Positions 27,397 to 59,769 of a DNA stretch of 64,000 nucleotides are shown here, in pieces; positions within the stretch are counted from its first letter, which is position 1; the number at the start of each line of letters is the position of its first letter. The notes below the pieces were generated by a model that saw nothing but the letters and a program-made list of their open reading frames with translations, was not told where the DNA came from and searched no databases. Origin of the DNA: a virus; the IMG/VR virus record IMGVR_UViG_3300030103_002259, positions 1-64,000 of that record, one strand, 5' to 3'. A program made the position numbers and the translations under genes.

Positions 27397-27455
27397 AATT
27401 TATTGTCTATTTGTAAATCTATTAAAATTTTATAAGTTTAATAAATGTTTAAAGT

Positions 27456-30400
27456 TTATAATATAAATGGATATACATTACTTGCATAAACAAACCCACC
27501 ATCATCATATACATATCCGCCTTTCTGATTTCCTTGTATTGGAAGATTACCAGCATTAACACCACCATATCCTGGAGGTGTCCCAGAATTACTAACAGAT
27601 GTAGCACTAGCTTGCAACTTCTCTTTCATCTCTATACACTGTTTTATTTCTGCTTCACTAGTTGCACCTTCATTCTGACATTCTGTTTTTAATTCACCAT
27701 AGCTCTTACGAACAGTTGAACGTTTACCAGTCATATCTCTACCACCTTTAAATGCTAAACTACCTCCATCAGCTGGATTAATATCATACTGCTCATTCAA
27801 TGCATTAAGATTCTGTTGCTTCTGTCTATTTGTAATAGCATTTGTATACAGATTTCTTAAGTTAGTTCTAGCAGCTAACTTAGCATTATCAAACTGTTGA
27901 TTAGCTACAGTGGTTTGATCATACAAGTTCTGACTTATCTGTTGATTAGTAAGTTGTTCTTGATTTCTGATACCAACCTTTTGTTGCTCATTAGCATTAG
28001 CAGCAGCTATGTTATTTACGTTATACTGATTTAATGTATCTGCAGCTTGTTTAGCAGCTTGACCTTGTATACTAGCAGCTCTTGCAGATTGAGCCTGTGC
28101 TCCAGCAAACTGACTAATTGCTTGCGTTTGTATATTAGCCTGTTCAGCTTGTGCTGCAAGCTCTCTAGTTGGATCAGCATATATAGCATCAGGTTCTTCA
28201 AGATCTACTCTTGGCGCCCAAGGCATATATTTTTTAATACCCATTAAATCACCAAAGGCTCCAGTAGTTTTAATTGTATCTTGTAGCCACCATGGAGCTG
28301 GTTCATCTTCTACAAGTATATTTTCATTCTCTTCACATGGTAAACAATCACCTGTTGCAGGGTCCACACCTACATCTATTATACTACCATCTTTTTTCTC
28401 ACATGGACATTTCTTTTTATCCTCTTTAGGATCACATGGACATTTACCATTCTCATCTTTTTCCATATAGAAATCACCATTAGGATCATCACATTGACAA
28501 CCATAATCTACACTAGTTGATTTTATACCTGTAAGTTCTCCAGCAGTAGTGTTACCATATACACTTGCATATCTATTACTACCACGCCCATTTGGATCTA
28601 ATTCTTCAGGCTGTACTATACCATCACCATCTAAATCTAAACTTTCAAAATCATCTATAGGAGATACATTAGTACCAAGATAACCTCTCATTCCAGTTTC
28701 ATCTGGATCACCCTCTTGTTGTTGACCCATAAAGTTTCTAATAGCAAATTGTGTATCTGCATCATAACTACTTGCATTATTCATCATATTAGCATATGCA
28801 TGAAAACCTGCTTGTTGAGCCGCTCTACTATTTTTACCATCACCTAGTTCACCGCTTCCAGAACCCATTTCTAAAGGTTCACCTATAGCAGTTGCTATTT
28901 GACCTAAAGAAATATTATTAGGATTTACTAAATCACCATTTCTATCACGTCTACCATATTCTTCAGCTATAAACTTTTTAGCTGAATTAAATTCTGTTTG
29001 AGTAGTTATAGGTGTACCTGTTTCAGGATTTACTATATCCATACCAGAATTTATACGAGCCTCTACATCAGGCCAACTTCTAAAACCTTTACCACTATTA
29101 CTAAATAATACAGGATCAATTTGTTTAGCTTTAAACATCAAGTTCCTTTTCTGCATCTTCATGAACTGTTCAATTCTTTCATCTGGGTTAAAAGCTCTTA
29201 ATGATGCTTCATTTGCTGTTTTAGCAGCAGCATTTCTATAACCACGAACATCTGATATTGAATTTTCGTATTCTTTATTAAATTGATCTCTAATCTTAGG
29301 GTCTTTAAAACCTTCTTTTAAAAGATAATATTGAATAGCAGCCGCTTTACCAGAAGGAGTTGTGCCAAAATCAGTACCCATAGTTTCTTCATCATAATCA
29401 GGAGTAACCCCTGTTTGATATTTACCTATACTTTTGGTACCATCAGCATTAACTCTAATAATTTTTTTTCCGTCTTGATTTGCTTGCCAAGCTTTTCTTT
29501 CATAATCAGGATCATTAACATTAATTTCTACACCATTCTGTGCTTTAGGTATAGATCTACCTACAGAAGCTTTAGGTGTATCATAAAATGGCATATCATA
29601 ACCACCCATCATCATACCATACATAGCCATAGGCATACCACCATATTGTTTCTCTGATATTTTTGGCGCATCTATACCATATTGTTCTAATCCTTGATAA
29701 AATAAATCTAAATCATTAGACCACTCAGTATTATGAGGACCTTCTGTTAAACCTTCTTCCATTAACCTCACAATACCTTGTAAGTGATCGGGATTATTAT
29801 AATCTTTTACCAGACAATCTAAGCAAAACTTAAATGTGCCATCAGCATTCATCATATCAGGATCCTGATTCCACATGTCAGGATTATTTATAAAGTAATC
29901 ATACTCTCCTCTAGCATAATCATAAAAACTTTGTGGCTCATCTTGAACTTCAGCTTGTTGTACATCAATGCCATTTTGAGCTCTTAAAATTCTTCCACCA
30001 AAAGACATTGATGGTTGTGCAACAGGAGCTTGATTCATTTCTTCTGCTTCAGCAACATCTTCACTCATCTCACCATCTTCTCCACCACCTTCTTTTTCTT
30101 CAACCTTTTTTGTTAATTGTTGATTTACTGCTTTTAACTGAGGGTTAACAATATCAGCCTCCTCAATATTATAGATTTTTGCAGCGGGCTGTGCAACAGC
30201 AGGTAAACCTTGCGGCATACCTTTCATAGACTCTTGTACTAAAGCTAATTCAGCTAGTTTAAGATTATAATTCTTAATCATTAACTCAGCTGTTTTTCTT
30301 GATAACTGATCTGAATCAGGATCTTCTAAAATTTTTCTATACTTATTAATATCATATTGTTTAGCAATCTTAGCAGGAGTTAAAGATTTTTTTTCATTCT

Positions 30401-30764
30401 TACCAAAACGTTTTAAAAGTTTTGGGTCTTTTACTTTCATTGATCTAGTATCACTATAGATAAAAGTATCATCTGGTAAGCTTAAAGGAACACCACCACT
30501 ACTATGGCGTGGACCTTTTATTATTTTATGTTCTGGAATACCATCACCATTCAAATCACCAAGTACAGTTTCACCACCTTCAGCCTCAACATTAGCCTCA
30601 TCTCTAGGTACACTAGTTATAAACTTACTTAAACTTAATGCAGGCTGTTGCATAGACTGAGTACTTCGCCCACCCATTGCAGCATTATCATTATACAAGC
30701 TATAATCTACTTGTTGTCCGACTTTAGCTTTAGGTAATCTTTTTATTCTTACTCTTCTTTTCAT
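27456..30764 (-). CDS. Virion cargo protein (cargo protein 1-like)
   Basis: 1102 aa. NVEAEGGE...GPRHSSGGV motif, a Q/A/N-rich coiled-coil C-terminus, several QxG(G) motifs, a Cys cluster and an EF-hand-like DLDGDG. Confidence 0.6.
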   Translation of the reverse strand: MKRRVRIKRLPKAKVGQQVDYSLYNDNAAMGGRSTQSMQQPALSLSKFITSVPRDEANVEAEGGETVLGDLNGDGIPEHKIIKGPRHSSGGVPLSLPDDTFIYSDTRSMKVKDPKLLKRFGKNEKKSLTPAKIAKQYDINKYRKILEDPDSDQLSRKTAELMIKNYNLKLAELALVQESMKGMPQGLPAVAQPAAKIYNIEEADIVNPQLKAVNQQLTKKVEEKEGGGEDGEMSEDVAEAEEMNQAPVAQPSMSFGGRILRAQNGIDVQQAEVQDEPQSFYDYARGEYDYFINNPDMWNQDPDMMNADGTFKFCLDCLVKDYNNPDHLQGIVRLMEEGLTEGPHNTEWSNDLDLFYQGLEQYGIDAPKISEKQYGGMPMAMYGMMMGGYDMPFYDTPKASVGRSIPKAQNGVEINVNDPDYERKAWQANQDGKKIIRVNADGTKSIGKYQTGVTPDYDEETMGTDFGTTPSGKAAAIQYYLLKEGFKDPKIRDQFNKEYENSISDVRGYRNAAAKTANEASLRAFNPDERIEQFMKMQKRNLMFKAKQIDPVLFSNSGKGFRSWPDVEARINSGMDIVNPETGTPITTQTEFNSAKKFIAEEYGRRDRNGDLVNPNNISLGQIATAIGEPLEMGSGSGELGDGKNSRAAQQAGFHAYANMMNNASSYDADTQFAIRNFMGQQQEGDPDETGMRGYLGTNVSPIDDFESLDLDGDGIVQPEELDPNGRGSNRYASVYGNTTAGELTGIKSTSVDYGCQCDDPNGDFYMEKDENGKCPCDPKEDKKKCPCEKKDGSIIDVGVDPATGDCLPCEENENILVEDEPAPWWLQDTIKTTGAFGDLMGIKKYMPWAPRVDLEEPDAIYADPTRELAAQAEQANIQTQAISQFAGAQAQSARAASIQGQAAKQAADTLNQYNVNNIAAANANEQQKVGIRNQEQLTNQQISQNLYDQTTVANQQFDNAKLAARTNLRNLYTNAITNRQKQQNLNALNEQYDINPADGGSLAFKGGRDMTGKRSTVRKSYGELKTECQNEGATSEAEIKQCIEMKEKLQASATSVSNSGTPPGYGGVNAGNLPIQGNQKGGYVYDDGGFVYASNVYPFIL

Positions 30765-30765
30765 A

Positions 30766-33700
30766 CTATATAAAATCTAATTCTACCCCATTGGCAAGTA
30801 AATATTCTATTAATTCTTCTGATAACTCATATTCACCATTTTCTTCAAACTGGTCCATGTAACCACCCTCTTGCATAAACCTACCATACTTAGCTGTGTT
30901 CATACCAGTACTATCTTCTTGACCCATTTGATCAAAGTTCTGTAAACCAAGTTGCTTACCTCCAATATCAACCTTATCACCTTTATAAGTTTTAACTGTA
31001 TTAGCATATAAGTTTTCTGGTCTAGTCATCTCATCATTATAATCAGCATAATCATTCTTTCTATTAGACCTAGACTTAAGTCCAGCAATACCTCGTATAC
31101 CAGCTATAGACACATTAGCTAATGCTTCACCATCTGTTACTTTAGTTCTTCTTTTTAATTTGTTTTCAAACATAACCTGTTTACCCTTCTTTTTATTTTT
31201 ATCATTATACTGATAATTATAAAAATCATTTTGGATAGGATCTACAGCTTGATTAGGATCTACAGTAATATTATTAGGTTGTGGATCAGGCATATCTGGT
31301 GTATTATTATTCATAAATGCTCCCATACTACCCATCATGCCTTGATTAGGATCTAGGTTAGTAATTTCTGCATCAAGATTAACTTCCATATTAGGTTGAG
31401 GTGCATTGACACCCATGTTACTAGTAAAACCTCCACTTTGCATAGGATTTCTTTTAGCTCTTCTATCAGCTCTGTCTGACTGTCTCTCACCCCTTCTAAT
31501 TTTTCTTCGCACACTTCCTTTTAAGTCACCATACTTATCTTTAAAACTTCTTTCTGGAATATCAAAATTAATTAACTTTTGAGTAGCTTGATTTCTAGAA
31601 TCTATTTGATTTTCTAGCTCACTAGAATCATCAGATCCAGTAGTATAATAATCAATATACTTTTTAGGCATACCCCTTCTATTAGTTTTAAGAACCTCTC
31701 TTCTCAATGGAGTAAGTTCATTCATAGGACCTGTATAATCAGTTTTAGTTTTTATATAAGGCATTCTACCAAACATCCTATTAGCTGGAAATAACATATC
31801 ACGTAAAGCACCTCTTCTACCACTAAATGTACCATAAGGAACCGTTTGTCTATTATAGTTTATAGTAGCTTTTCTAATAGGGTAACCTTCCCAAGGATCA
31901 ACAGCATTTTTTTCAGCTGCTCCAGCATCCATAAATGCCTTTGCTACCTTGTATGCAGCACCACCTCTTTGTGCCATTGGCACATCTTCCATTTCACCAC
32001 CCTCTTGTTTTATTTTACCTAAAGAAAAATGTGGGGCAACCCAGTCATAAGTAGTTTTAGGCTCTTTTAAACCAAGTCCAAAATTAGACTCAAGCATGCC
32101 TGTTCTAGTAATAGAAGGTAAATCCTTTGGTACTTGATCTGCTGACATACTACCTGGTTTATATTCTAATACTGGATAACCAAAGTCTTGACCAGTTAAA
32201 TTCTGCATATTCTCTAAGTTAGTCATATAATAATCTCTTCTTAATTTAGAAGTATCACCAATAATCTTAGCTTCTGCCTTAGCTATTTCTGCATCATTTA
32301 AACCTTGAAACTTTAAATCATAAATAGCATCATACATCTTTTTACCCCAATACCCATCAGTTAAAAAGTCTTCACCTTGAAGTCTATTATAACCAGTAAA
32401 GATGGGACTTTCAAATATACCATAACGTTCAGGATTCTGCAACATTCTAGCAAAATGACCATCTTGCATTAATTTAGAATCAAGGGTAAGATTATCTGAC
32501 CCTGTACCAAGTGATCCTATAGGTAGTTTACTTATATCAGCCATTTGTAGTTTTGAAGCTTCTGCTAAAGCAGCAGGACTTCTATAGTTATGAGCATATA
32601 ATGAAGGCACAACATTTTTACTTGGTATACCTAAAGATTCAAAACCCATCATACCTTGAGAAGACATACCAGTAGGGTTTTCCATCAGCATTTGAAATCT
32701 CTTTACAGCTTGTTCAGGAGTAAGCTCATTGAAAAAAGATAGATTTGAGTCTGCTCCAAAATCTGTACCATATTGAGCATCTGCCATAGCCCTAACATTT
32801 TCTAAGCTGAGAGGAGCATTAGCATAATCTAAATCAGCAGCAGCACTTTGTAACGGCCCACGACCTTGTGATATAGCTCTTAATATACCTTCCTTAGATT
32901 GCATACCAGGATAAATTACTTGAAGATCTTCATCTAATACATGACTAGTTTTTGCAGAATTTAATTTTTTCTTTAATACATTATCATTTGCAGTAGTCAT
33001 AAAATTTTTATCTCTAATCAAACCTCTAATTTGCTGCAATCTTTTTAATTCATCTTTAGGAATTTTATTAAAACTTTTAACAGGTTGTAAATCTTTATAA
33101 ACTTTTAAAGCATTTTTTATAATCTTACCTCTCTGAGCTCTAGGCATTTCAGAATTTTCTTCTTGAACTAAACCATCTGCCATTTCCATAACTTTAGGGT
33201 CACCTAATTTATTAGCATTATTATAAATCCCTTCACCCAATGCTTTTGTAGAAAGATTTTTTAAACTTTTTGTAAAATCAGACTTTCTTTTACTAATCTC
33301 ATTTGTTAAAGTATCCTGTCTATTACCAGTACCTATAGTTTCTGAATCACCACCTTCTTGTTTTTTAAGCAATGACTTGACAAATTTTCCTTTTGTCATA
33401 CCACCATATGACATCATACTTAAATCATCCCAACTAATATTATCTGGACTAATATATTCAGATAATGTTGGAAATCTTATATCCATTATAGGACTTTGCA
33501 TACCATCCATATACTGATCAAAGGACATTTCTGGCTGCGGCTCTTCAGCTTGGCCACCTTCTTGTAATCTATTGTTAAAATAAGTTCTATTACTATATCT
33601 TCTTTTACCTCGACCTTTATTGCCAAATGCATTAGCAAAGAAGTTATTTACCGCACTATTACGAGCACGTTGTCTTTTCATGAGAGGAGCTCTTTGTGAT

Positions 33701-34425
33701 TCTGTAGGTGTAGATTCTGTGGGTGTAGGTATAGATGCAGGTGGTTGTTCAGATATAGGAGGCGACAATGGTGGTGGTGAAATACTTGGACCACTAGTAC
33801 CAGGGCCTATATTTGCACTTGCACCACTTTGATAAGCACCTCTATTACTTAACATACTTTGTCTTAACTTCTGCTGTAACATCTCATTCTCATCACTAGA
33901 TGGTTCAAAAGATAAATTAGGATCAAATTTAATTGAACCAACTCCACCACCTTGTTGCATAGATAACTCAGAAGTTTCATCTTGTGCCATCATTTCTTCT
34001 TGATCACCCTCAGAGTAACCATCTTCTTGATAAGGTTGTTCTGACTGAGTTAAGTCTGTCATTTCTTCTGGTATGCTAGCAGACTGTGGAGCAGTTTGAT
34101 CTTGACTTTGATCTGATACTTTCTTAGCCATCTTTTCAAAGTACTGTGGATCAAATAAACCAGCCTCAATCATTTTACTTATTACCTCTGACATCAAAGC
34201 ACCTGCCATTTTTTTCTCCATACCTGATGTTAAAAGATTTGCATAAACTTCTTCAGGTTTTATATTTGCACGAAGCTGTGCAAATACATTTCTAGCATAA
34301 GTATCTCTTATAGCACGTTCTGTAATACCGCCTCCCATTTGAAATTTAGACAAAAACTTTTTTGTCTTATTTATATAAGCACCTTTATTATCTGGTGACT
34401 TATAAATCTTTACTCTTTTTTTCAT
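30766..34425 (-). CDS. Modular cargo-like polyprotein
   Basis: 1219 aa. Many QxGG/AQRG motifs, low-complexity linkers, one globular module (about 32010-33135) and an acidic C-terminal tag. Confidence 0.6.
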   Translation of the reverse strand: MKKRVKIYKSPDNKGAYINKTKKFLSKFQMGGGITERAIRDTYARNVFAQLRANIKPEEVYANLLTSGMEKKMAGALMSEVISKMIEAGLFDPQYFEKMAKKVSDQSQDQTAPQSASIPEEMTDLTQSEQPYQEDGYSEGDQEEMMAQDETSELSMQQGGGVGSIKFDPNLSFEPSSDENEMLQQKLRQSMLSNRGAYQSGASANIGPGTSGPSISPPPLSPPISEQPPASIPTPTESTPTESQRAPLMKRQRARNSAVNNFFANAFGNKGRGKRRYSNRTYFNNRLQEGGQAEEPQPEMSFDQYMDGMQSPIMDIRFPTLSEYISPDNISWDDLSMMSYGGMTKGKFVKSLLKKQEGGDSETIGTGNRQDTLTNEISKRKSDFTKSLKNLSTKALGEGIYNNANKLGDPKVMEMADGLVQEENSEMPRAQRGKIIKNALKVYKDLQPVKSFNKIPKDELKRLQQIRGLIRDKNFMTTANDNVLKKKLNSAKTSHVLDEDLQVIYPGMQSKEGILRAISQGRGPLQSAAADLDYANAPLSLENVRAMADAQYGTDFGADSNLSFFNELTPEQAVKRFQMLMENPTGMSSQGMMGFESLGIPSKNVVPSLYAHNYRSPAALAEASKLQMADISKLPIGSLGTGSDNLTLDSKLMQDGHFARMLQNPERYGIFESPIFTGYNRLQGEDFLTDGYWGKKMYDAIYDLKFQGLNDAEIAKAEAKIIGDTSKLRRDYYMTNLENMQNLTGQDFGYPVLEYKPGSMSADQVPKDLPSITRTGMLESNFGLGLKEPKTTYDWVAPHFSLGKIKQEGGEMEDVPMAQRGGAAYKVAKAFMDAGAAEKNAVDPWEGYPIRKATINYNRQTVPYGTFSGRRGALRDMLFPANRMFGRMPYIKTKTDYTGPMNELTPLRREVLKTNRRGMPKKYIDYYTTGSDDSSELENQIDSRNQATQKLINFDIPERSFKDKYGDLKGSVRRKIRRGERQSDRADRRAKRNPMQSGGFTSNMGVNAPQPNMEVNLDAEITNLDPNQGMMGSMGAFMNNNTPDMPDPQPNNITVDPNQAVDPIQNDFYNYQYNDKNKKKGKQVMFENKLKRRTKVTDGEALANVSIAGIRGIAGLKSRSNRKNDYADYNDEMTRPENLYANTVKTYKGDKVDIGGKQLGLQNFDQMGQEDSTGMNTAKYGRFMQEGGYMDQFEENGEYELSEELIEYLLANGVELDFI

Positions 34426-34441
34426 AGGTAATAATATATAT

Positions 34442-34454
34442 TAATATACTAAAA
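34442..34454 (-). promoter_or_regulatory. Putative late-promoter element TTTTAGTATATTA
   Basis: Identical 13-mer at 58366-58378, and variants at 50895, 53392 and 59847. All are intergenic and just upstream of minus-strand starts. Confidence 0.55.
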
Positions 34455-34482
34455 TTTAAATTAATGTTTAAACTATAAAAGT

Positions 34483-37400
34483 TTACATATCCTCAACAAT
34501 ATACCCTTGTTTAACTAAGTTATCTATTTCTTTTTGAGTTAATTCTGTTTCTACAGAACCTCCCTTTTGAAACTCAGGTATACCACCATATTCAAGAATA
34601 CCTTTCTTTCTTAAAAATTGTTTAAACCTACCATCCATTTTTTTTCTTTTGCCAAACAAACCTTGACCTTTTCTAATAGAATTATTATATCTTCTTTTAC
34701 CTCCTAAACCTTGACCACTACCAGACAAAGCTCCTTTAGAAAATTGAAGACCTCTTCTTATAGGTTTATACGGGATTCTAGATGGGTTTGGATTTATATC
34801 TGATGGCATTACACTTTCACCTTCTGTATCCCAGATTTCAGTTACTGTAAAGTCTTCAGGATCTATATCTTCTCTTGGCTCTGGTGTATAATCAAATGTT
34901 CCTGGTTTTATTTTATCAAGAGGTACTATTTCAATTTCTGGTTCAGGCTCTGGTTCTGGTTCTGGTTCTGGTTCAGGAATTACCTCTTCAGGTATTTCTT
35001 CTACTATAAGTTCTTCTTCTGGTTCTTCTATAAATTCATCAAAATCATCAAAGAAAAGATTGTGACAACCCCCTTCAGCCTTACACATATACTTTTTATT
35101 TATATCCCATTTACCAGGAACAACTGCAGGACTAAAGTTTCCTTGATAATAAGGGTTAGGTCTATACTTTACACACTCTACACCGTTCCAAACTTCACCT
35201 GGACCACAATCTTTAACATTACCACCTTTACTTAATAATGGCCTCTTCTTACCTTCAGGGAATCTAAAATCTGTTTTCATTACACCAAAGTGAGGTAGTA
35301 TAATTGAATTCTCTCGCATCATAAAGTCATATGGATTAGTAATGTATGATGAAACGGGATCCTGAGAATTCAATGTTTGAACAATAGGTAACCTATCTCT
35401 TTCAGGAATGCCTTGTTTATCATACATGTCATTCAATTGTTTTTGAAGATATTGAGACCTAATATCTAATTGATCACTGCTTCTTATACCTAAAGAGTTA
35501 TCCATTAATAAACTAGCTAAGTCACCCATTGAGTTAGCTGGGTAATAACCTAAAAACATAGGGTAAGGAAGTACATTTGGTAATTTACCTGGTATTGTAG
35601 GATCTGTACCTTTAGTAGCTCTAAATATTCTACCCAGCTGCATAGCATAAGAATCGTCAGATGTATCTAAAGAACCTGTGACAATAGTATTTGGCTTTGC
35701 ACCATAAAAACCTCGATTAAGTCTTTGTTGAAAAGCGTTAAACAATTCTCTATCATTACCGTATCTATTTCTAAATAATGAACCGACTGCTTGTTTTATT
35801 TGAAGATTCCTATGGAAATCTGTCATATCATTAAATCTACTTAATGGTTGTTCACCAGGTAACAGAGTTGAAGAATCTAATGCAGAACTAGGCGTCTGGT
35901 TTAAGCTACCACCATCAAGAGTACCTAATGTTTCCATCTGTCTTATAGCTTCATCACCACCAATAGTCATCGCTGGTACATATTCAGGTTTTGTAAGATT
36001 TCTACTAGTAGTATGTTGTATTGCTTGATCCAAAATGTCTATAAGCTCTTCTTTAGATTTTTCTTGTATTAGCCTTCTTGCTTTATTTATTCTCTCTTGA
36101 CTAGGTTCTAAATAACCCTCACTATTAGGAACCATGAGTCCTTTGTTAAAATGTGAGTTTGTTAATAAACCTGCTACCTCATTTTTAGTAATATTTGAGT
36201 TCATCAAAACCTTCCGTAATTTTTTACGGTTAGCATTCATTTGTATATCTTGAAATCTTTTTATTTCTGGATTTGTAAAAGTTCCTGATACATTAGTTGG
36301 TACACCAGTATAACCATAACCTATCATCAGGTCAGTAAGAGCCTTATACTTATCAAAAGTTCTCTGATCCATCATAGGTGAAACAATAGTATTTGGTAAT
36401 AGTCTAGGAAGTTCTTCTTTAAATTTAGACAATGTTTTTATAATCCTTCCTGCTTGACCTTTAGGTAATGTTTTTATTTTTCCATTATGAGTTCTTGCAT
36501 ATCTATTATTTTCATCTTCCATACCAGGTATTAAAGTTCCTGAATATGATTTACCTTTAAAGTTCCAAGATACATTACCACCCTTTTGAAAATCTTCAGG
36601 CTGCTCTAATTCAGGTTGCATTCTATAATTAGTAGTAAGCTCTTCTCCTGGTTCTAGATCTCTATTAGCAAAAACATATCTTTCATTTCCAATTTTTTTA
36701 CTAAACATTGTTGGGGAATCTTCATTATGATTATGCATCCTACCCAATTTAGATGCGGGTTGGTCATCTCTATGAGCTAAACCAATCATATCACCTTTTT
36801 TAAAACTTCTAGTAGTAAACATACCATCACCAGCACCTTTTATTTTAGATTTAGATTGAGCTATCCCGCCATCTTTTACCATTGGTATTTCAAGCACTCT
36901 ATTACCTGGAAATTCATAGTTCATATCTGGCATCATCATCTTGCTATTACCTAAATTATCTATACCCATAACTGGAAAATCAACATCTTCCATGGTTATA
37001 TTATTTGAGTCAATAATATTAAAAGGATTATTTATATCAGGACTACCTGACTTATAACCTTCTGTAGAATAAATACCACCTTTTTTAAAATTTTTTATTG
37101 TCTGTTTAGCAGTATTCTTAAAATCTTTTATATTTTTTTCAGCGTCATTATAAAGCTCTGCACCTTTAGTAAAAATCCCTTCCATAACTGGCATTGCTAT
37201 ATCATCAAACGATAATGGTAACATAGCTGATTCTAATGCAACACCACCAAAAGCTGGATTATTAAAATTACCACTCATATAATTTTTAGCACCTTCATTT
37301 AAACCCGTAGCTGAGTTGACTGTAAACGGTTTAAATTTAAAATTTCTAAGAGCTTTTGGATTCAGTAATTTATCAGCAGATCTAACACTCTTTTTCAAAC

Positions 37401-38838
37401 CATCTGCTAAAAACTTTTTACCACCAAGCGCTCTACCAAAAGTTAAATTCAGTGCAGGTGCTAAAAAATCTGATGCGCCAATATCTGCATCAGGTGTATT
37501 ATAAGAATAGGCTGCAATATTACCCAAACCTTTAAGACCATCTGCAAACAATTGCGCAGCTCTAATTTGACCCAAGTAGGGTGTAATATAAGAAGCCCCA
37601 TCCAAACCTTGCATCATCATATTACCTTCCCAAATACCAGCGGCAGGATCCTCCTCTTGCATACGGTCAGTATTACCGTATTTAGATAAATGACCAAGTG
37701 CATCAACAGGGTGTAAAAACTTAGTAAGCGTAGAAGCTCTTCTATAAGGATTTTTAATATTCCAAGATGCATTATTTCTAGCTGACTCTTCATCACTTAT
37801 ACCTCTTATATGATGACCTCTATCAAACCACTGACCATCTGGACCCAGAGTCATGCCAGCATCCAGCATTTTTTGAGCCTCAATTAATTCTAAATCTGCA
37901 TCATAACCACCTTCTACATCTTTAAGAATTGCAATCTTTTGAGCTTTAGAGAGACTACTATCATTAGCAATTTTTCTTTGAAAATCAATAAGTTTCATAC
38001 CCCTATCTTTAAGATCACCACTTGAACTTTGTAAGTTAGCAGCTTCTTCTTCAAGATCTAATGTTCTTTCACGATAAGGGGCAAAAGTATCTGATGTAGC
38101 AACATTTCTCTCATAATCAGATAAATTACTATCAAATTCAGACTGAGCTTCCTTAGCTCTTTTATCTTCTTCTTTAGCAGCATCTGTATAAATATCTGTA
38201 ATATCATTAGTCAGACCAGAACCAGTATAATATTTAAGGATTTCATCTTGGGTTTCATCTGTGTAATCACCAAAATATTTTTCTAATGATTTAGCATCCT
38301 TACCCATTCCTTGTTTGAGTAACTTATCAATTATTTCTTCTTTAGTTTTACCTTCCTGTAATTCTTTAAGAATTGTTGTTTTATTTCCTAATTCATAATT
38401 AGCTTTATGTAGATCAAAAATATTTTGAAAAGATTTAGAAAGAAGATTCTTTTTACTAATACCCATATTCTCAAACTCTTTAGCTGTAGCACCTCTATTA
38501 TAAATAGCTTCTGCAATAGAATTTGGATCATATGCCTGGAAACCTGAAACCTGCTCACTACCGTCATCACCTTTAGTATAATTTGGAGAAAGAAAAACAC
38601 CAAGCACAGGAAAGCCATCTTCCCCTGGACGGTTTATATATTCAGAAAAACCATCCATAGTTGGTTGTACATCAGAGTCTAAAGAACTTGAGTATTCATT
38701 ATATAGGCGTTCTATAAATTTATTATCTAAACCTATAGCATCAGTATAAGTTTTACCTTCACCATCTTGATAAGGTTTGACCTCAAACCTACCTCCATTC
38801 TGCATTCTAGGTAATGCTGTTATTCTATACTTTTTCAT
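34483..38838 (-). CDS. Modular cargo-like polyprotein containing a minimal SET domain
   Basis: 1451 aa. SET motifs GAGDGMF, RMHNH and GEELTTNY at about 36600-36865, flanked by KDGG and FQKGG. Also a PE repeat and the C-terminal tag. Confidence 0.7.
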   Translation of the reverse strand: MKKYRITALPRMQNGGRFEVKPYQDGEGKTYTDAIGLDNKFIERLYNEYSSSLDSDVQPTMDGFSEYINRPGEDGFPVLGVFLSPNYTKGDDGSEQVSGFQAYDPNSIAEAIYNRGATAKEFENMGISKKNLLSKSFQNIFDLHKANYELGNKTTILKELQEGKTKEEIIDKLLKQGMGKDAKSLEKYFGDYTDETQDEILKYYTGSGLTNDITDIYTDAAKEEDKRAKEAQSEFDSNLSDYERNVATSDTFAPYRERTLDLEEEAANLQSSSGDLKDRGMKLIDFQRKIANDSSLSKAQKIAILKDVEGGYDADLELIEAQKMLDAGMTLGPDGQWFDRGHHIRGISDEESARNNASWNIKNPYRRASTLTKFLHPVDALGHLSKYGNTDRMQEEDPAAGIWEGNMMMQGLDGASYITPYLGQIRAAQLFADGLKGLGNIAAYSYNTPDADIGASDFLAPALNLTFGRALGGKKFLADGLKKSVRSADKLLNPKALRNFKFKPFTVNSATGLNEGAKNYMSGNFNNPAFGGVALESAMLPLSFDDIAMPVMEGIFTKGAELYNDAEKNIKDFKNTAKQTIKNFKKGGIYSTEGYKSGSPDINNPFNIIDSNNITMEDVDFPVMGIDNLGNSKMMMPDMNYEFPGNRVLEIPMVKDGGIAQSKSKIKGAGDGMFTTRSFKKGDMIGLAHRDDQPASKLGRMHNHNEDSPTMFSKKIGNERYVFANRDLEPGEELTTNYRMQPELEQPEDFQKGGNVSWNFKGKSYSGTLIPGMEDENNRYARTHNGKIKTLPKGQAGRIIKTLSKFKEELPRLLPNTIVSPMMDQRTFDKYKALTDLMIGYGYTGVPTNVSGTFTNPEIKRFQDIQMNANRKKLRKVLMNSNITKNEVAGLLTNSHFNKGLMVPNSEGYLEPSQERINKARRLIQEKSKEELIDILDQAIQHTTSRNLTKPEYVPAMTIGGDEAIRQMETLGTLDGGSLNQTPSSALDSSTLLPGEQPLSRFNDMTDFHRNLQIKQAVGSLFRNRYGNDRELFNAFQQRLNRGFYGAKPNTIVTGSLDTSDDSYAMQLGRIFRATKGTDPTIPGKLPNVLPYPMFLGYYPANSMGDLASLLMDNSLGIRSSDQLDIRSQYLQKQLNDMYDKQGIPERDRLPIVQTLNSQDPVSSYITNPYDFMMRENSIILPHFGVMKTDFRFPEGKKRPLLSKGGNVKDCGPGEVWNGVECVKYRPNPYYQGNFSPAVVPGKWDINKKYMCKAEGGCHNLFFDDFDEFIEEPEEELIVEEIPEEVIPEPEPEPEPEPEPEIEIVPLDKIKPGTFDYTPEPREDIDPEDFTVTEIWDTEGESVMPSDINPNPSRIPYKPIRRGLQFSKGALSGSGQGLGGKRRYNNSIRKGQGLFGKRKKMDGRFKQFLRKKGILEYGGIPEFQKGGSVETELTQKEIDNLVKQGYIVEDM
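34936..34977. repeat. Hexanucleotide tandem repeat (TGGTTC)n encoding a Pro-Glu linker
   Basis: tctggttcaggctctggttctggttctggttctggttcagg, translating to PEPEPEPEPEPEPE on the minus strand. Confidence 0.9.
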
Positions 38839-41800
38839 ATTTCCTCTATTGTATAACCTTGTTTTCTTAATTCTTCTACCATATCTTCTGTAACCTCATC
38901 TCCTAATTCTAATACACCACCCTTTTGAAAACCTAAAAGATCACCTCCAGTATTATCTCCATCATTAAATAATTGATCAGCTAAAAAACCCCTAGTTCCC
39001 CATTTAAAAGTATTTTCAAGAAGTGGTTGTAATCCCGCACCTTTTAAACCCGCCTCTAAATTATCTTTGTCTAGCTTTTTATAATTATTACTAAACCATT
39101 TTTTTCTATATACATTAAGATCTTCTAACGGAACTTTATCTAATAGACCACGATCAATTTTATCAAAAGGAGCTACACCATAATTTTCAACACCACCTAC
39201 ATGATGAGACCAATCATATTTAGATTTATTTGGTAGGTCAGTTTCTACAGCAAATATACCTCTGTAATTATTATTAGGCTCATCACCCTTACCAAAAAAA
39301 GGAGTATCTACTGTAACACCACTTTTCATTAATATTGGAGCAGGAGCTTTAGCGCCTTTTTGTTTTATTAAATCTTGTAATCCTTTTTTATTTCCAATTT
39401 TTCTATAGAAATGACTTCCTGGAGTAAGTTCATTTTTAGTAAATGCAGTTAAGGGAGCACTTATTGGATTTTTTATAGCACGACCTATATTCTTTAGTAT
39501 AGACCCACCTCTTTGTAATTTAGGTTTATCATTATCATTCATTAAACCAGGTAATGCAAATGGTATTGCTAAACCAGGTAAATATCTAAGAGCTTGATAT
39601 TTTTTTTCTTTTGGTACTCCTTTTTTAAAAAATGAATTTAACGGAACTCCTGTACCTTCCATTTCAAGCATGCCATCTAAAGTTGAATTTGATGGGTTAC
39701 GTAATTCACCAAGAGCCCACTCACTTATCCTCTTATCTCTTTCAGCTATATCTAAAGTTTTACCTGTATTAGGATCTACTTTAAAAGCTTCTTTTACAGT
39801 TTTATCATTTGTCCACTCATCATATATTCGTTTTCTAACAACCATTAACTCTGAGTGTAATTCATTAGGAGACCCAATCCAATCTTTATCAGGCATTACT
39901 TCTTTAAAGAACCTACCTATATTAGTATTTTCATTTGGATAAAAGTATCCTTTACCAGAATCAAATTCTGCTAACACATTACCAAACCCTCTATTTAGCA
40001 TACCTAATCCTTGAGAAGTATGAGCAGCTTCATGTAAAGCTATATCAGTTATTTCACTACTTGGATATCTATATAAACCTATACCTGGATTTGTAACTGA
40101 TAGATTTAAGCTTGATTTATTAACACCAGCTGTATCATTTTGTAAATAGTTTTTAATTAAAAACTTTTTTTCTGGGTCAGTAAATTTACTTGATAAAATA
40201 TCTGTAATACCTTGTGGACGTAGTATATTACGTGTTTTAACCAAAGGGTTTTCTAAATTTAAACCTGGTGTGTTGCCACTATATATAAGAGTATTATCTA
40301 AAGTAAGTCCATCACCTAAACCTAAACGACCCAATCCTTCAAAGTCACCACTACCATCACCTCTAAATTCTTGAGCAAAATATTTATCTTGTCTATTCTG
40401 AGGTCCAGAGAACTCAAATATATCTAATATTTTATCTGATATATCTTCTCTTAATATTTTACCAAATTTAGGATCTACTTCATAAAACCATTTATCATTA
40501 AAATTAACACCTTCTTGTATTGCTAAAGATGCTTCTAAATCTGCAGCTTTTTTTTGGGAAGGTGTCAAAGGTAAAACCTCACCAAAACTTCTTTCTCCTT
40601 TTGTAATATCTTGAATGGCACGTGTAAGACCTTTCTTAGTGTTATCTATCTTATTACTAATAACCTTGCTTGTTAACTTTTTTATACTAGGCTGCACCTC
40701 TTTTACAAGCTTTGCATTTTTTGAGATTTTGTTAATAGCCTTAGATAAAGACGCACCTCTTTGAGCTTTAGGCAACCCTCCATCTTTTAGTTTTTTCCTT
40801 TTATTTCTTTTATCTTCAAATGCAAAAGGTAACCCTAAAGTTAAAGGCAGTAAAGATTTATATATATTAGAATTAGACATATCAAACATTCCATCATTTC
40901 CTATTGCTGATTTAACTCTATTACCAGGTCTATTGTTTATCATAGTTACATTACCAAAGTCATTATACAAAAGAGGATCTCCATCAAAAACATTATTTAA
41001 CTTAATATTATCAATATCATTTTCTATCATGTACTTCATGATTTTATCAGTTGTTGTTCCTTCTGGAAACTGAGAACGTAAATCTTTTACAACATCATTA
41101 AGTTCTTTAGCAGTAGAATAGTCTTGTTCACCTAAACGAGGATCAATATCACTAAGATTTAATGAGTCCCAAACTTGATAATTTACATCTAAATCTGCAG
41201 ATTTTGATGACATTGGATAGTAAAGTTCATTTACATTTCCCACCAACTTTCCATTTAATGTAGCATATTGTCGTGCTACTTCTCTATCTGTAGATGTAAA
41301 AAGTGGTTGATGAAGATCTTCAAGATTCTTCATAGATCCTCTATATGTAGAACCAGCCCCTTGAGGAAATGCTTTTTTAAAGTTCTTACTCTGCTGTTGT
41401 ACAAATTGCTCAGGAGTACCTTTAAATAGACTACCATCTGCATTTTTCATCCAAGTATCATTTTGTTTTGTATTATATTCAATAGCACGATACTCTTCAA
41501 TTAATGGTTTATTATTAGGTATGTTCTTGTTCCACTTACCCCAATCTATTTGTGATTTAAAATTTTTAACAGGTAGTTTTTTTGCAGCTTTGGCTAATGC
41601 AGCACCAAGTTGAGCTTTAGGTAAATCTTCTACTATGTAACCACCGTCTACATACTTTTGTATTTCTTCATCATCTAATTCAAGTTCTATTGGACCACCC
41701 CTCTGTCTAATTAAATCTAAGTTAGGTTCTGCTGCTTTCCACCATTTTTCTCCAAATGGTATACTAAAAGGTAAGTCAACAAAATGCTCTCTTGCACCCA

Positions 41801-43211
41801 GAGTCCTATTAACACCATCAAAATTTAAAACCCTTCTTGCACCACGTTCATTATCAGGATCAAACACAGAACCTAATTTATCCATTCCACCTGTTAGCCA
41901 ATTATCATCTGGTAAATAAGGTTGAAGTTTATTTGAATCTATAAATTGAGCACCAAATCCATGTTGAAGCAAATTACTTATATTCTCTTGAGTAGTTTTA
42001 TTTTGATGTAAACCAAGCTGTAAAGGGTTTGTATAATCAAAAAGTTTAAAAGGAACATCTGAAACACTAGTAATTACATCAGGGTTAAGTATAACTAGCT
42101 CGTTACCACCTATATCTATTACACCATCTATTCCATATTTAGATCTTAATGTTGCTGCCTTTTGTGGAGTCATCCCCATATGCCCACCAATATGCGGACC
42201 TGTTGAACGTTCAATAAAATGTACACCAACATCTCTAAGTGCATTAAGAACATACGGATTATTACCACCAACCAACCTAGCATTAGGAGAAACTCCTATT
42301 TCTTTTATTCTTCCAAGATCAGCTGGTCTACTAGAAGGATCCCTCAGAAGTTTACTTATAGCAAATTCTGTAGGAAGATCATATTTTAGTGAAGCTTGAG
42401 CACCTTGATTTTTATTAAGACCTCCAAAAAAACCATACTCTGTCAATGAATTACCAGGTTTAGTACCAGTTGATGTCCAATCTTTAAATCCTTTAGGGTC
42501 TATTTTTGAACGATCAAATTCAAGATCTTCTAAAGTAAAACCTGGACTTGTTGAACCAACACCGTGATAAAAACTTCCAAGTGGTTCTGTTAAAAAACCA
42601 TCATCATCAAATACTAAAGAATCACCCCTTTTTGTTTCAATAACATATGGATTTTCTAAATATTTTTCAATATTTGTTTTAAAAACATCTGATGATTGCA
42701 GAATCATATCTTGCATGAGAGCTAGTTTTTCCTCTTCTGACTTTCCTAGTATATTAAAACGCCTATCTCTAGTACCACGACTTACATCATCTGCAGTAAT
42801 TTCTATTCTATTATCAGTTGTAAGATCAACACCTCTCAATGGAACTTCATATTGACCAGGGTCAAGTTGGTTCTTTAGTAGTCTACCTTGACTTTCTTTA
42901 ATTGCAGATACTATACTAGGTAGCCTTAGTCCATACTTTTTGTAATCTGCAGCGGCCCTTGCTAAAACATCAAGTTCTGCTTTAGATAATATCTTTCCAC
43001 GTCTCAATGCATTTATTCCTTTAAAAGCACCACCACCTTGGAAATATTGAGCATTAGGATTATAAATTCTTCTAGGGCTTGGTTTACTAAAAAGAGGATT
43101 AGGTGCAAATACAGAATTAGTAGCAGATAAACTTTTGCTATATCTTTTAGTTCTGTATTGATCTCTTAGATCTCTATCTATTGCACTTAGTACTCTTTTA
43201 TTATAACTCAT
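38835..43211 (-). CDS. Modular cargo-like polyprotein with ADP-ribosyltransferase-like domains and a zincin metallopeptidase
   Basis: 1458 aa. FYHG...GIDGV...ELVILNP; YRG...LFTS...A.QYA...VKSAIGNDGMFD; LHEAAH...PNE; FYRKIG. Modules are separated by QxGG/LPKAQxG motifs. Confidence 0.65.
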   Translation of the reverse strand: MSYNKRVLSAIDRDLRDQYRTKRYSKSLSATNSVFAPNPLFSKPSPRRIYNPNAQYFQGGGAFKGINALRRGKILSKAELDVLARAAADYKKYGLRLPSIVSAIKESQGRLLKNQLDPGQYEVPLRGVDLTTDNRIEITADDVSRGTRDRRFNILGKSEEEKLALMQDMILQSSDVFKTNIEKYLENPYVIETKRGDSLVFDDDGFLTEPLGSFYHGVGSTSPGFTLEDLEFDRSKIDPKGFKDWTSTGTKPGNSLTEYGFFGGLNKNQGAQASLKYDLPTEFAISKLLRDPSSRPADLGRIKEIGVSPNARLVGGNNPYVLNALRDVGVHFIERSTGPHIGGHMGMTPQKAATLRSKYGIDGVIDIGGNELVILNPDVITSVSDVPFKLFDYTNPLQLGLHQNKTTQENISNLLQHGFGAQFIDSNKLQPYLPDDNWLTGGMDKLGSVFDPDNERGARRVLNFDGVNRTLGAREHFVDLPFSIPFGEKWWKAAEPNLDLIRQRGGPIELELDDEEIQKYVDGGYIVEDLPKAQLGAALAKAAKKLPVKNFKSQIDWGKWNKNIPNNKPLIEEYRAIEYNTKQNDTWMKNADGSLFKGTPEQFVQQQSKNFKKAFPQGAGSTYRGSMKNLEDLHQPLFTSTDREVARQYATLNGKLVGNVNELYYPMSSKSADLDVNYQVWDSLNLSDIDPRLGEQDYSTAKELNDVVKDLRSQFPEGTTTDKIMKYMIENDIDNIKLNNVFDGDPLLYNDFGNVTMINNRPGNRVKSAIGNDGMFDMSNSNIYKSLLPLTLGLPFAFEDKRNKRKKLKDGGLPKAQRGASLSKAINKISKNAKLVKEVQPSIKKLTSKVISNKIDNTKKGLTRAIQDITKGERSFGEVLPLTPSQKKAADLEASLAIQEGVNFNDKWFYEVDPKFGKILREDISDKILDIFEFSGPQNRQDKYFAQEFRGDGSGDFEGLGRLGLGDGLTLDNTLIYSGNTPGLNLENPLVKTRNILRPQGITDILSSKFTDPEKKFLIKNYLQNDTAGVNKSSLNLSVTNPGIGLYRYPSSEITDIALHEAAHTSQGLGMLNRGFGNVLAEFDSGKGYFYPNENTNIGRFFKEVMPDKDWIGSPNELHSELMVVRKRIYDEWTNDKTVKEAFKVDPNTGKTLDIAERDKRISEWALGELRNPSNSTLDGMLEMEGTGVPLNSFFKKGVPKEKKYQALRYLPGLAIPFALPGLMNDNDKPKLQRGGSILKNIGRAIKNPISAPLTAFTKNELTPGSHFYRKIGNKKGLQDLIKQKGAKAPAPILMKSGVTVDTPFFGKGDEPNNNYRGIFAVETDLPNKSKYDWSHHVGGVENYGVAPFDKIDRGLLDKVPLEDLNVYRKKWFSNNYKKLDKDNLEAGLKGAGLQPLLENTFKWGTRGFLADQLFNDGDNTGGDLLGFQKGGVLELGDEVTEDMVEELRKQGYTIEEI

Positions 43212-46200
43212 TACCTTTGTGATAATTGATTCTTACTATTAACTATTTTCATTATCATATTAATATCATTACACTCTTTTCTTGTCAATGTTATAAAGTT
43301 AGTATAATGTCTGAATTTTTTTCTTTGAAGTTCAGATTTATTATAATCTAAGTTAGATTGATTAAGAACTCTAGTGTAACCATTTTGAGATGTCACCCAA
43401 GTATTTTCAGAAGCATAGTTACCTTGTAGTATTGTAGTACCAGGTATTACTGACCCTGTTGGTGGATAACTAGAACCTATTGGAAACTCCGCTCTATCTT
43501 TAGTAATATCCCAGAATTGATTTATTCTATACTTCTGCTCTTCTTTAGTAAATAAAACATCATATGAAGATAAGTTATCAGCCAACTTAGGATACTTCAT
43601 AGATTCTACAATATTATTTTTAGGATAAAGATTTAAATTTAAATACCCAGAAACTTGTTCTGAATTATAAATAACTGCTTGATCAAAATTATAATCTAAT
43701 ACATGATGTTGATCAATACAATTACTCTCCTTTCTTCTATAACATTCTAATATATAAGTTAAAGATCTTAAGGTAACTACATTTTGTCCCGTAAGCGAAG
43801 GTATCTCAACTTCAAACCCATATTGTTTACCATAGTAATTACAAAAACTATTACACAAGTAGTTATGTCTCCATAAACCATCTTTCTTTGTAGAAATAAA
43901 ATAATCTTTAGTACCAAAATTAAGATCTGGATGCCAATCATGATAGCTAACAAAGAAATTACTTTTTGGATCATAACTAACTGTCCAAGAAGCATCCTCA
44001 AAAATTCTTTCATCTCCTAGTCTATATTGAGTATTTTTATTTTCATCTACAGAAAAATAATCACCTGTACCATCTGAATTTAAAGGTATATATTTAGTTC
44101 TTCCTTTATACTCATCTTTTAAATAGTAGTCAGTTTTACAGAAGTATAACATTGTACTTGTATTACCATAGATTGCTTGACATCCTATACCAGCTACTGG
44201 GTTATCTATATAAGGGTATTCTGGAAAATCTTCAGTTAGCTTATATGGCATAAATAATGTAAACCACCACTTTAATCCTGAGTTAGAAATTTCAGTTAAA
44301 CCTTGACCATAAGAAAATATTTTCCCCTGATCTTGACTCATATAAAATATACCCACTGGAGTAGATATTACAGATAACCTACTTTGACATGAACCGTACT
44401 CATATGGTAAATCTGCTGATGAAACATTTTGTTGTGGCTGACTAAACAAACCACCATCACCTATAGTAATCTTTGTACCTAAATCAGTTTGTAGTGTATC
44501 AACACCTTGATACATTATTGGAGATTCATTTTTAAACGTAATAAAAATACCACTATCGTTTATTGACTTGACACTATTTATTTGACTTTTAAAAGACTTA
44601 TAGTTATTAATTAAATAAATAAACCAACTATCTTTTACAGATTCATCTTGAACAGGTAAAGAATAAATTAACCTATCAGGAAAATATGTAAAACATAAGT
44701 TTGCAACAGAAGGATCATACGTTCTAGCTTGTAAAAATCCTTGTGAGAAATATTGATTATATAATTTAGATATACTCAAGGAATAGTCATATCTATAATC
44801 TGTACTTTGACCGATAACATTGGGGTTAATATTAAACATAGCCCTATAGTCTGTATACCTATACGGATTATAATGTTTTCTACCAACCTCCTCTGCTTGT
44901 GATCTAAAGTCTGTAAGAACATCTGTTTCAACAAAGAAATCTCTTATGCCTGAGTTAGCTAAATAAAAGTAAGCTTGTTTAATTGAAAATACGCCCTTTT
45001 CCTTATCTTGAAAAATACCTAGAATACCTGAAGGTTTTCTTTTATCATCTGTATAACTATAAAATCTATTATTATTAACTCTATAGTCTAAATTAAAAAA
45101 AGCATTAGGTAATGCACCCTCACCTACAACATCATCAGCAAATATATTGAATGATTCTTTTAAATCACCAACATCATATTTCTTACTATTAATTGCAAAC
45201 CTAGCGTCTGGAATTTGATCTCTTAAGAAATAATTAAACTCAAAATCATCTGGTTGATTATATAACCAATCATAGAAAAATAACATATTATTTTTTTCTG
45301 TATATCTAGTTACATAAGTATCACCTCCAAAAAATAAATCAGTACTTGTAATTCGTTTATAATAATATACTATGTTATCAATTGGACAAAAATATTCTAA
45401 ATCTAAAGGCGGTGTTTCTGATAGCTTTTGTTCACAAGGTGAAATAATAACCTGTTTAACAGAATCTAATTGACCATATTGATTTCTAATTCTAGACCTT
45501 AGAGCTCCATATTGACTAGCAATGGGTAAACCAAAAGCATTTCTAGGATTTTCAAAAGTTGGTAATTTTCCATCACTTGGTATTAGAGGACTATTACTAT
45601 TTTGTACTAGTGTGCCCAAAGTGACTAATGATGAATCTTTTTCTCCTAACAACTTTGGTCCAATATTAACACCTTCAGAAAATGCTGGATTAAAAAATGG
45701 CCCTGATTTAGTTCTAAGAGTAACTGTCTCAGGTCTTTTTAAATTATTAATAGTATAGTTTTGATACAACCCTAATTGATTTTGATAAGTAGGAACCTCT
45801 TGAAAATTATTTTTTATGTAAAAACCATCATCTAATTTAAATCTATATAAGTCAGTAAACTCAGGAGGGTTCATATTAGAATAAAAACCATGACTTATCT
45901 GTTGTAAAGCAAACTGTCTTTTGGGTGTAAAAGCATATATTAATTCTAAAGTAGCACTTGCACCTTCTGAAAAATAATATGCTATATGATTTATAGCACC
46001 AAGAGTTTTAGCTAACGGTCCTAAGTATGTCCAAGCAGGTAGCTCTACATTAACTGTAGTGTAAGGCACTGTTGTTGCACCAGTTAATGCAAGGGGAGCC
46101 ATCGCAGCATAAAATGAGGCATCAATAGCTGCCATACCTGGAGCTTCATATGGCGGAAATAAACTTACTAGAGAATCAGCTGCACCTGCGGCACTTGAAT

Positions 46201-59274: not shown

Positions 59275-59769
59275 TTAAATTCTTGATCTATAGCGTTTTG
59301 TTTTACCGTCTCTATATATTTTTTCTTTTCTAACCCCTCTTGTTTTACCTCTATTATTAGTTCTAGATCTTGATGACATTTCTGAACTTGAAATTAAATT
59401 ACCAGCTTTATCATACGTCCTAAAGTCATCAGTAATTTTTTCTTTTGATCTTGATCTTGTATTATCTCTTCTATTAGTTCTAGACTTTATATTTCTATAA
59501 TAACTATCATCATTTGTAGTATAACCACCTTTATTTTCACCTGTAAAATTGGTTATTTTAGATTTACCTATACCCGTTCTTGTAAGTTCAGATTTTCTTC
59601 TAGTACCTCTTCTATTAGTATTACCACTTCTATCTTCAACGGTATTCATCTCTCTATTACTTTCAACTTGACCACTCCAGGTACCTCCTTGCTGAAGCAT
59701 AGGTTTTGGCTTTTGTCTAGATTCTCTAAAGAATCTTAAAACTTCTGTAGGGTTAGCTTTATTTTTCAT
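59275..59769 (-). CDS. Arg/Ser/Thr-rich basic protein (start revised to MKNKANP)
   Basis: The track start at 59808 overlaps a micro-ORF. The ATG at 59769 has an A-rich leader. Contains LQQGG and repeated SRTN.R. Confidence 0.65.
   Translation of the reverse strand: MKNKANPTEVLRFFRESRQKPKPMLQQGGTWSGQVESNREMNTVEDRSGNTNRRGTRRKSELTRTGIGKSKITNFTGENKGGYTTNDDSYYRNIKSRTNRRDNTRSRSKEKITDDFRTYDKAGNLISSSEMSSRSRTNNRGKTRGVRKEKIYRDGKTKRYRSRI

Follow-up and report, generated by a model that had tools for sequence, protein, structure and literature searches.

Why should consecutive genes for large proteins that are probably carried in the virion end in one and the same acidic peptide, and why should the gene that follows open each time with a basic strand? 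The question is raised by the window analysed here, a stretch of 64,000 nucleotides (nt) that forms the first 64 kb of the 83,391-nt IMG/VR record IMGVR_UViG_3300030103_002259, whose completeness is rated at about 70%. In this window four consecutive genes (27456-43211), here called cargo genes 1 to 4, encode modular proteins, three of which end in an acidic tag of some 25-30 amino acids (aa). An earlier note, made from the DNA letters alone, had drawn attention to these tags and had proposed that tag and strand are charge-complementary docking domains, which string the cargo proteins together in gene order. Comparison with relatives indicates that tag and strand belong to a single conserved junction module, of which they form the two sides and which marks cassette boundaries in the cargo of a large uncultured crAss-like group. 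The next sections discuss the evidence for this module, and then the question of whether its two sides bind each other.

Three split junctions in four consecutive genes

All four cargo genes lie on the minus strand. Gene 1 (38835-43211, 1458 aa) encodes a modular protein with an HExxH motif that is conserved in the family alignment; its product starts with MSYNKRVL, without a basic-strand leader, and ends in ...LELGDEVTEDMVEELRKQGYTIEEI. This end is C-terminal tag 1, of the ELGDEV type, which together with the preceding FQKGG occupies aa 1427-1458 (38838-38933; profile match E 2.6e-9). At junction 1 the stop of gene 1 and the start of gene 2 overlap as ATGA, and the product of gene 2 (34483-38838, 1451 aa) begins with MKKYRITALPRMQNGG. 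Its first 16 residues (38791-38838) are leader 1, which consists of the strand MKKYRITA followed by LPRMQNGG and is conserved in 17 loci. Gene 2 carries a cassette with a SET domain (Pfam SET, E 9.5e-6; 36600-36865) and ends in ...VETELTQKEIDNLVKQGYIVEDM, where aa 1422-1451 (34486-34575; E 2.4e-13) form tag 2, again with a preceding FQKGG.

After the TAA stop of gene 2, a 57-nt spacer (34426-34482) that is conserved across loci leads to gene 3 (30766-34425, 1219 aa), the richest of the four in Q-x-G-G motifs (9 observed against 0.54 expected). Its product starts with MKKRVKIYKSP, and leader 2 extends over aa 1-32 (34330-34425) from the strand MKKRVKIYK through FQMGG; it is kept as MKK+V+IYK...Q.GG in relatives. 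The protein ends in ...GEYELSEELIEYLLANGVELDFI, with tag 3, of the NGVELDF type, at aa 1183-1219 including the preceding MQEGG (30769-30879; E 1.8e-4). Junction 3 reads TAG-T-ATG and leads into gene 4 (27456-30764, 1102 aa), whose product starts with MKRRVRIKRLPKAKVG; leader 3 comprises aa 1-16 (30717-30764), that is, the strand MKRRVRIKR plus LPKAKVG. Gene 4 has no C-terminal tag and ends in ...NVYPFIL, and gene 5 (23617-27396), which starts with MATYLQGV, has no leader. The window thus holds three successive split junctions, each with a tag and a leader subtype of its own.

The translations of the four minus-strand open reading frames (ORFs) bear out what the earlier note had read from the sequence: they reproduce the strings it quoted for the acidic module at the ends of three consecutive genes, they agree with it that the following genes open with a basic strand (MKKYRITA, MKKRVKIYK and MKRRVRIKR), and they agree that the fourth protein lacks the tag and the first lacks the strand. 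As a separate observation, the boundary between genes 4 and 5 is also uniform in the window and in loci L018-L061, gene 4 always ending in a hydrophobic tail of the ..V(F/Y)PF(I/M)(L/F) type and gene 5 always starting with MATYLQGVTDYIPx(F/Y)QPFQPD.

The acidic tag as a cassette-junction module

The tag is not confined to gene ends. A fourth copy, absent from the list in the earlier note, lies inside gene 1 at aa 501-530 (41622-41711; IRQRGGPIELELDDEEIQKYVDGGYIVEDL; E 3.5e-16). It runs straight into LPKAQLG (aa 531-537, 41601-41621), the downstream half of an unsplit junction, which is followed by a basic amphipathic stretch; the same motif stands after internal tags in relatives. The E values given here come from a profile built on 33 tags from other loci, none of them from this genome, and run on 498 six-frame segments of the 83-kb record. 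It found exactly these four copies, and the next best segment reached only E 0.36.

The module proved to be widespread. A word-indexed search with the four copies returned 44 proteins, and when 1.84 billion cluster representatives were searched exhaustively with a profile, 778 of them had the tag at E<=1e-3 and 253 at E<=1e-10, in nearly every case as 2-4 matched stretches. Among the 144 new representatives at the top of this search, 123 proteins end in a tag; of the 349 copies that these representatives contain, the other 226 are internal. The tag also ends the unit sharply: of 151 unique C-terminal copies, 150 have the end of the ORF 0-1 residue past the end of the profile. Upstream, 148 of 151 C-terminal and 187 of 240 internal unique copies have a Gly-Gly within 16 residues of the core, whereas downstream of internal tags stand PKAQxG, SVPSLT.. 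or similar short linkers, which mostly reach another Gly-Gly (within 20 aa in 130 of 226). Internal tags have the same sequence as C-terminal ones, with no start codon nearby. Among unique instances the subtypes are position-specific, ELGDEV (29/29) and NGVELDF (9/9) being found at the C-terminus and QKYVDGGY (14/14) inside the protein.

Cassettes are gained and lost exactly at these junctions. Compared with protein P0001, P0011 has an extra cassette between QRGGPIE and the internal tag, and P0019 has one that ends in RQKGG just before the terminal tag. Because many copies are internal as well as C-terminal and cassettes come and go precisely there, the tag, as judged from its distribution, is a unit-ending junction module of modular proteins and not a peculiarity of three genes. 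The aligned sequences indicate three states of the junction: plain (..GG-PKxKxG..), tagged and unsplit (..GG-tag-LPKAQxG..), and split (..GG-tag-stop / start-basic strand-LPKAQxG..).

The module has no Pfam model, and tblastn did not find the tag in 50,697 cultured or deposited phage records. In many relatives (proteins P0049-P0192) the tag ends in ..IIEEID, ..IVEEVD or ..TVEEVD, which recalls the EEVD end of eukaryotic Hsp70 and Hsp90 that is bound by TPR domains.

Tag and strand in related loci

The earlier note had suggested that the adjacency of tag and strand be surveyed in related genomes. Relatives were collected as 23 metagenome loci through a family alignment of gene 1 and 35 IMG/VR loci through an alignment of the internal tag, 58 loci in all; searches of IMG/VR with gene 2 alone or with a narrow tag-1 alignment confirmed none. 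The gene order muzzle, gene 1, 2, 3, 4, 5 is conserved in the related loci. Neighbouring large ORFs in these loci and in this genome gave 212 unique junctions, of which 137 have neither tag nor strand. At 70 unique junctions the upstream gene ends in a C-terminal tag, and in 68 of these (64 with a clear and 4 with a weak tag) the next gene opens with a basic strand by pattern; in the other two it starts with MKKSV(I/T)(V/I)RK, a leader of the same family that the pattern missed. The adjacency holds for nearly all the tagged junctions surveyed, most of which are orthologous and not independent. Conversely, a basic strand within 30 aa after an internal tag was found in 0 of 251 cases.

The charge complementarity that had been proposed is also present in the relatives. 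At 51 unique tagged junctions the charge averages -6.0 over the final 24 aa of the upstream protein and +4.6 over the first 12 aa of the protein that follows; at 155 other junctions the corresponding means are +1.4 for the ends and +1.3 for the next heads. The leader itself consists of a strand in which K/R and hydrophobic residues alternate, followed by an LP+A+xG or Q.GG element like the one that stands after internal tags. In alignments of the C-terminal 50 aa of gene 1 and the N-terminal 50 aa of gene 2 over 17 loci, only the stretch from GG through the tag and that from the leader to its GG were conserved, and the flanks could not be aligned.

Constraint on protein and on DNA

Such conservation might also be a scar of evolution with no role in binding: a flexible hinge and a conserved boundary for cassette recombination, where genes were divided or a stop and a start inserted, with the leader shaped by the needs of translation start in tightly packed, A-rich genes of Bacteroidota type. 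The precise gain and loss of cassettes at junctions agrees with this explanation, as do the very A-rich leader codons and the high similarity of tag and leader DNA between loci, tag 1 being identical in 1370 of 2520 codon pairs. However, tag and leader are conserved at the amino-acid level while the rest of the proteins falls to about 27% identity. Over 15 loci, invariant positions in tag 1 and leader 1 are encoded by two or more codons, and the exchanges are conservative (I/V, L/I, K/R); these synonymous codons and conservative exchanges point to constraint at the level of the protein. Furthermore, other tightly packed genes of the same phages start without such strands, 137 junctions having neither element, and tag 2 is conserved despite the spacer before the next start (57-60 nt; 46-64 nt across loci). 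The scar is accordingly an improbable account of the module.

The arrangement of the reading frames bears on whether the cargo genes could be fused at translation. The frame relation is -4, -1, +1 or +2 at junction 1 and ranges from +1 to +11 at junction 3. Readthrough or a programmed frameshift was rejected on these grounds: since frame relation and gap length at junctions 1 and 3 differ between lineages, a conserved frameshift fusion is unlikely.

The DNA between the genes has conserved features of its own. A hairpin, TAAACT-N5-AGTTTA (34469-34485), overlaps the stop codon of gene 2, and a conserved AT-rich box comes next. The spacers after gene 2 (34426-34485; 46-64 nt) and after gene 4 (27397-27458; 59-65 nt) are both conserved across very divergent loci (L003-L061), and both have a hairpin TAAACTT-N4-6-AAGTTTA over the stop codon with an AT-rich box after it (..AAACTTATAAAATTTTAATA.ATTTACAATATAGA.. 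before gene 5). These elements are probably a terminator-like element plus a promoter. The hairpin also accounts for a candidate that was discarded, namely a "basic tail" ..(S/G)KL(K/N)KF(I/T/K)(S/R/H) at the end of the first or second cargo gene in L018, L030, L040 and L059, which had been considered as an alternative end signal: it is the post-stop hairpin read as protein where the stop is lost or out of frame.

Fused, lost and added junctions

Several lineages have changed a junction. In L030/L040, genes 3 and 4 form one ORF, with the junction ..KYGGVPHMKMGG-PKGKTGQQVDYSL and ..MGG before PKGKTGQQVDYSL; compared with the split form, precisely tag 3, the stop and start codons and the strand are absent. 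Relatives thus have one boundary in a fused and in a split version, with the two elements confined to the latter, as in docking pairs. The lineage of L041 has gene 3 ending in ..DLIKLAGLNKK and the gene 4 head MNKKLNKLPRARTG, the acidic end and the V-+-I strand both being replaced. L018 has one more tag-ending gene, placed between the muzzle gene and the gene-1-type protein, the latter carrying the prefix MKKYKITSLPKKRSGG; the second gene of this locus ends untagged, and its gene-3 homologue lacks the 32-aa leader. In L059 eight further residues stand after the tag, again the post-stop hairpin read as protein.

Three lineages lack tag 2, and in two of them (L030/L040 and L045) leader 2 is intact. 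Because leader 2 is kept there without tag 2, it must have at least one role that is independent of the tag. This observation agrees with a different explanation, in which tag and leader each act as a separate end signal and bind something other than each other, candidate partners being the portal, the capsid's inner surface, the tail barrel and the array of small basic proteins, or in which the leader is a capsid-targeting sequence as in the T4 internal proteins. On that view the two would adjoin only because modular cargo proteins finish with a tag and the conserved genes after them open with a leader. Also in line with it, short MKKY..QKGG heads are found on small basic proteins with no acidic tag upstream, and the 123 of 144 top representatives that end in a tag do so whatever comes next. 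In phage crAss001, parts of the cargo protein gp45 were seen bound to the portal and, separately, to the tail barrel, according to the accessible text of its structural description (Bayfield et al. 2023, PMC10172136). Against independent signals stands the fact that the strand part of the leader occurs only after tag-ending genes and is absent from the fused form and from all 251 internal junctions. Moreover, the gene-1-type protein of L018 gains a leader just where a tag-ending gene precedes it, and a packaging signal would be expected on genes 1 and 5 too, both of which lack one. On balance, independent signals are unlikely, with an appreciable chance of being right all the same.

Proposed pairing of the two sides of a split junction

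The reading preferred here is that the strand of a split junction binds the acidic end of the protein encoded just before it, without a covalent link, and so joins the cargo proteins in gene order. The strand would pair by strand addition and charge complementarity, and the pairing would stand in for the peptide bond that is missing between separately translated pieces. The pieces would then remain linked in gene order during loading of the head and during threading through the tail from N to C. Pairing is suggested because the extra strand occurs only in the split state and because the pairs are kept over deep divergence; the opposite mean charges of tag end and next head fit it. It is a tentative proposal, to which we give somewhat less than even confidence, because the evidence is comparative, most junctions are orthologues of one another, the tag is encoded right beside the leader, and two lineages keep leader 2 although tag 2 is lost.

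Several further points weigh against pairing. Most tag copies are internal (226 of 349), with no strand partner encoded beside them. Four small basic proteins (61470-63424) have MKKY..QxGG heads, and the genes upstream of them end in basic tails. Since tag and leader are adjacent in the DNA, their joint loss or gain can be one recombination event, and the comparative support for docking draws for the most part on orthologous tag-strand junctions. When the unsplit junction was modelled by itself with AlphaFold2 (66 aa, 16-row alignment), the mean predicted local distance difference test (pLDDT) score was 57.6, with one helix (DEEIQKYVD) and no confident autonomous fold; this outcome would be compatible with a peptide that folds only on its partner, and proves nothing. 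A complex predicted between the C-terminal 50 aa of the gene 1 product and the N-terminal 50 aa of the gene 2 product (17-row alignments, run without controls) scored 0.12 and 0.10 against a mark of 0.32, which speaks neither for nor against binding.

The docking proposal in the earlier note is thus partly supported: strands adjoin tags in relatives, none follows an internal tag, and the fusion has no strand. It is limited by the nature of the tag as a general, mostly internal cassette-junction module, by a leader 2 that is kept without its tag, and by the heads of the small basic proteins.

Q-x-G-G motifs and small basic proteins

The motif hydrophobic-Q-x-G-G, which stands before the tag and at the end of the leader, is strongly enriched in the cargo. 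Genes 1 to 4 hold 4, 3, 9 and 2 copies, respectively, against about 0.5 expected in each, and six small basic proteins (59275-63424) hold 9 against about 0.3; there are 0 in the muzzle protein and in the 2445-, 3249- and 1980-aa proteins encoded in the same record. The motif may be a hinge or a protease site.

If it were the latter, the cargo would be processed as a polyprotein: the motifs would be cut, tag and leader would be spacers or propeptides that are removed, the cassettes would be freed as enzymes, and separate genes would be the genetic equivalent of the cut. The sum of 18 motifs in the four cargo proteins against about 2.1 expected, their enrichment in the small basic proteins and absence from the muzzle and the three largest proteins, the Gly-Gly close upstream of C-terminal and internal tags alike, and the insertion of cassettes exactly between Q-x-G-G and tag in P0011 and P0019 relative to P0001 are all consistent with this, and gene 1 has its conserved HExxH motif. 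A precedent is the proposal, in the available text of Iyer et al. (2017, PMC5512222), that polyvalent proteins are cleaved by their own zincin-like peptidases. However, no peptidase family was detected by Pfam in 35 ORFs of the 83-kb record or by PHROGs in 16 ORFs, in a record that is about 70% complete and for a phage that could use a host protease. A conserved helical module of 25 aa far exceeds the needs of a cleavage site, the extra strand at split junctions is left unexplained, and no word beginning with "cleav" or "proteoly" occurs in the accessible text on crAss001 (PMC10172136). Processing seems a poor candidate on these counts.

The small, very basic proteins form an array downstream of the capsid gene (59275-63424, minus strand). 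Several start with MKKYQKGG, MKHLTKYQKGG or, probably from GTG, MKKYLPKAQRGK, and they end in ..GGSLRRSKKH or similar. They gave no Pfam or PHROG family match, and are possibly DNA-condensing internal proteins. A broader version of pairing would include them. Here the tags (2-4 per protein, internal copies included) and, on the basic side, the strands together with the segments of LPKAQxGG plus basic helix would be complementary "stickers" that build one ordered, non-covalent train of cargo, perhaps with the small histone-like basic proteins as members; the leading protein would be lodged in the tail behind the muzzle and would draw its successor through the portal, and so on down the train, so that gene order would be injection order. 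We regard this train as a speculative extension with little chance of being correct as a whole.

How crAss-like phages get several megadaltons of protein into the particle, and let it out in order before the DNA, is a question on which a conserved boundary peptide code offers a concrete, testable handle. The junction code would also be a practical marker with which to find and delimit injected effector cassettes in uncultured phages. If the binding is real, its parts would be small orthogonal protein-protein connectors.

Genomic context of the cargo genes

All genes are on the minus strand. The muzzle protein gene (43211-48613, minus strand, 1800 aa) was recognized by Pfam crAss_MUZ (E 2e-12) and as a PHROG virion structural protein (E 5e-48). 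Family searches further identified the large terminase and the portal (PHROGs), the Crassvirus major capsid protein (Crass_capsid) and the tail ring proteins CrAss_Ring_1 and Ring_2. The block has the order that is typical of crAss-like (Crassvirales-type) virion genes, all in one orientation: the muzzle gene followed by the cargo genes, with rings, major capsid protein, portal and terminase upstream. Cargo genes 1 to 4 lie directly downstream of the muzzle gene, and are followed by the gene for a 1259-aa protein and by three giant genes (2445, 3249 and 1980 aa). The products of cargo genes 1 to 4 are probably carried in the particle of an uncultured crAss-like phage.

Among the four cargo proteins only the SET domain of gene 2 passes Pfam, the HExxH of gene 1 being visible as a motif. 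Searches of deposited phages with genes 4 and 5 by tblastn gave no match. As for the giant proteins, a LysM domain (E 1e-4) lies close to the C-terminus of the 1980-aa one (579-6521), the 2445-aa one (16277-23614) gave a weak PD-(D/E)XK match that falls short of the Pfam cut-off, and the 3249-aa one has no Pfam family match.

Comparison with known systems

In polyketide synthases and nonribosomal peptide synthetases (PKS/NRPS), docking domains are short matched peptides at the C- and N-termini of consecutive gene products, which keep the modules in order; relatives have fused and split versions of the same boundary. The junctions described here differ from them in that the sequences are unrelated, there is no assembly-line chemistry, and the putative partner is a single basic strand. 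The internal proteins of phage T4 carry an N-terminal capsid targeting sequence, and proteases of adenovirus type cut at (M/I/L)-x-G-G. Like these, the leaders are short, conserved and N-terminal on proteins that are probably packed in the head, with Gly-Gly at their end; no prohead or adenain-like protease was detected in the ORFs scanned by Pfam and PHROGs.

Among cultured phages, the Cellulophaga phages phi17:2 and phi4:1 offer a point of contact. The cassette of gene 2 that neighbours the SET-domain cassette (aa 582-738) is shared with their virion structural protein gp041, and their gp043 is a homologue of the muzzle protein; these genomes (145 kb) have FQAGG/FQSGG motifs and no tag.

Polyvalent proteins are large proteins, delivered with the DNA, that combine many unrelated cassettes which vary between relatives, as set out in the available text of their description (Iyer et al. 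2017, PMC5512222). The cargo genes here likewise have cassettes that vary between relatives, including the SET domain and HExxH, although neither the MPTase-PolyVal nor the ART family was found by Pfam in the four cargo proteins at E<=0.01. Unlike in the present case, a repeated junction peptide or a split form is not mentioned in the available text of that paper, in the main text of which linker, spacer, boundar-, crAss, Cellulophaga and Flavobacter- occur 0 times. No published account of such a tag or split junction was found, in a search that covered literature outside subscription journals and did not include the motif letters themselves.

A further comparison is with crAss001, whose cargo proteins C1 (gp45) and C2 (gp46) reside in head and tail. 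Their ejection is proposed to run from N to C with partial unfolding, in an order that is probably set by packing and by mutual interactions (Bayfield et al. 2023, PMC10172136, in the accessible text, which makes no mention of a repeated junction peptide). A phmmer search of genes 1, 3 and 4 and of a 9-sequence gene-4 profile against all PDB chains gave only chance-level, low-complexity matches (E>=0.02), with no match to crAss001 gp45. The two systems agree in their layout: as with gp45 and gp46, the cargo genes of the window follow the muzzle gene directly, and where crAss001 has two of them, this phage has four or five.

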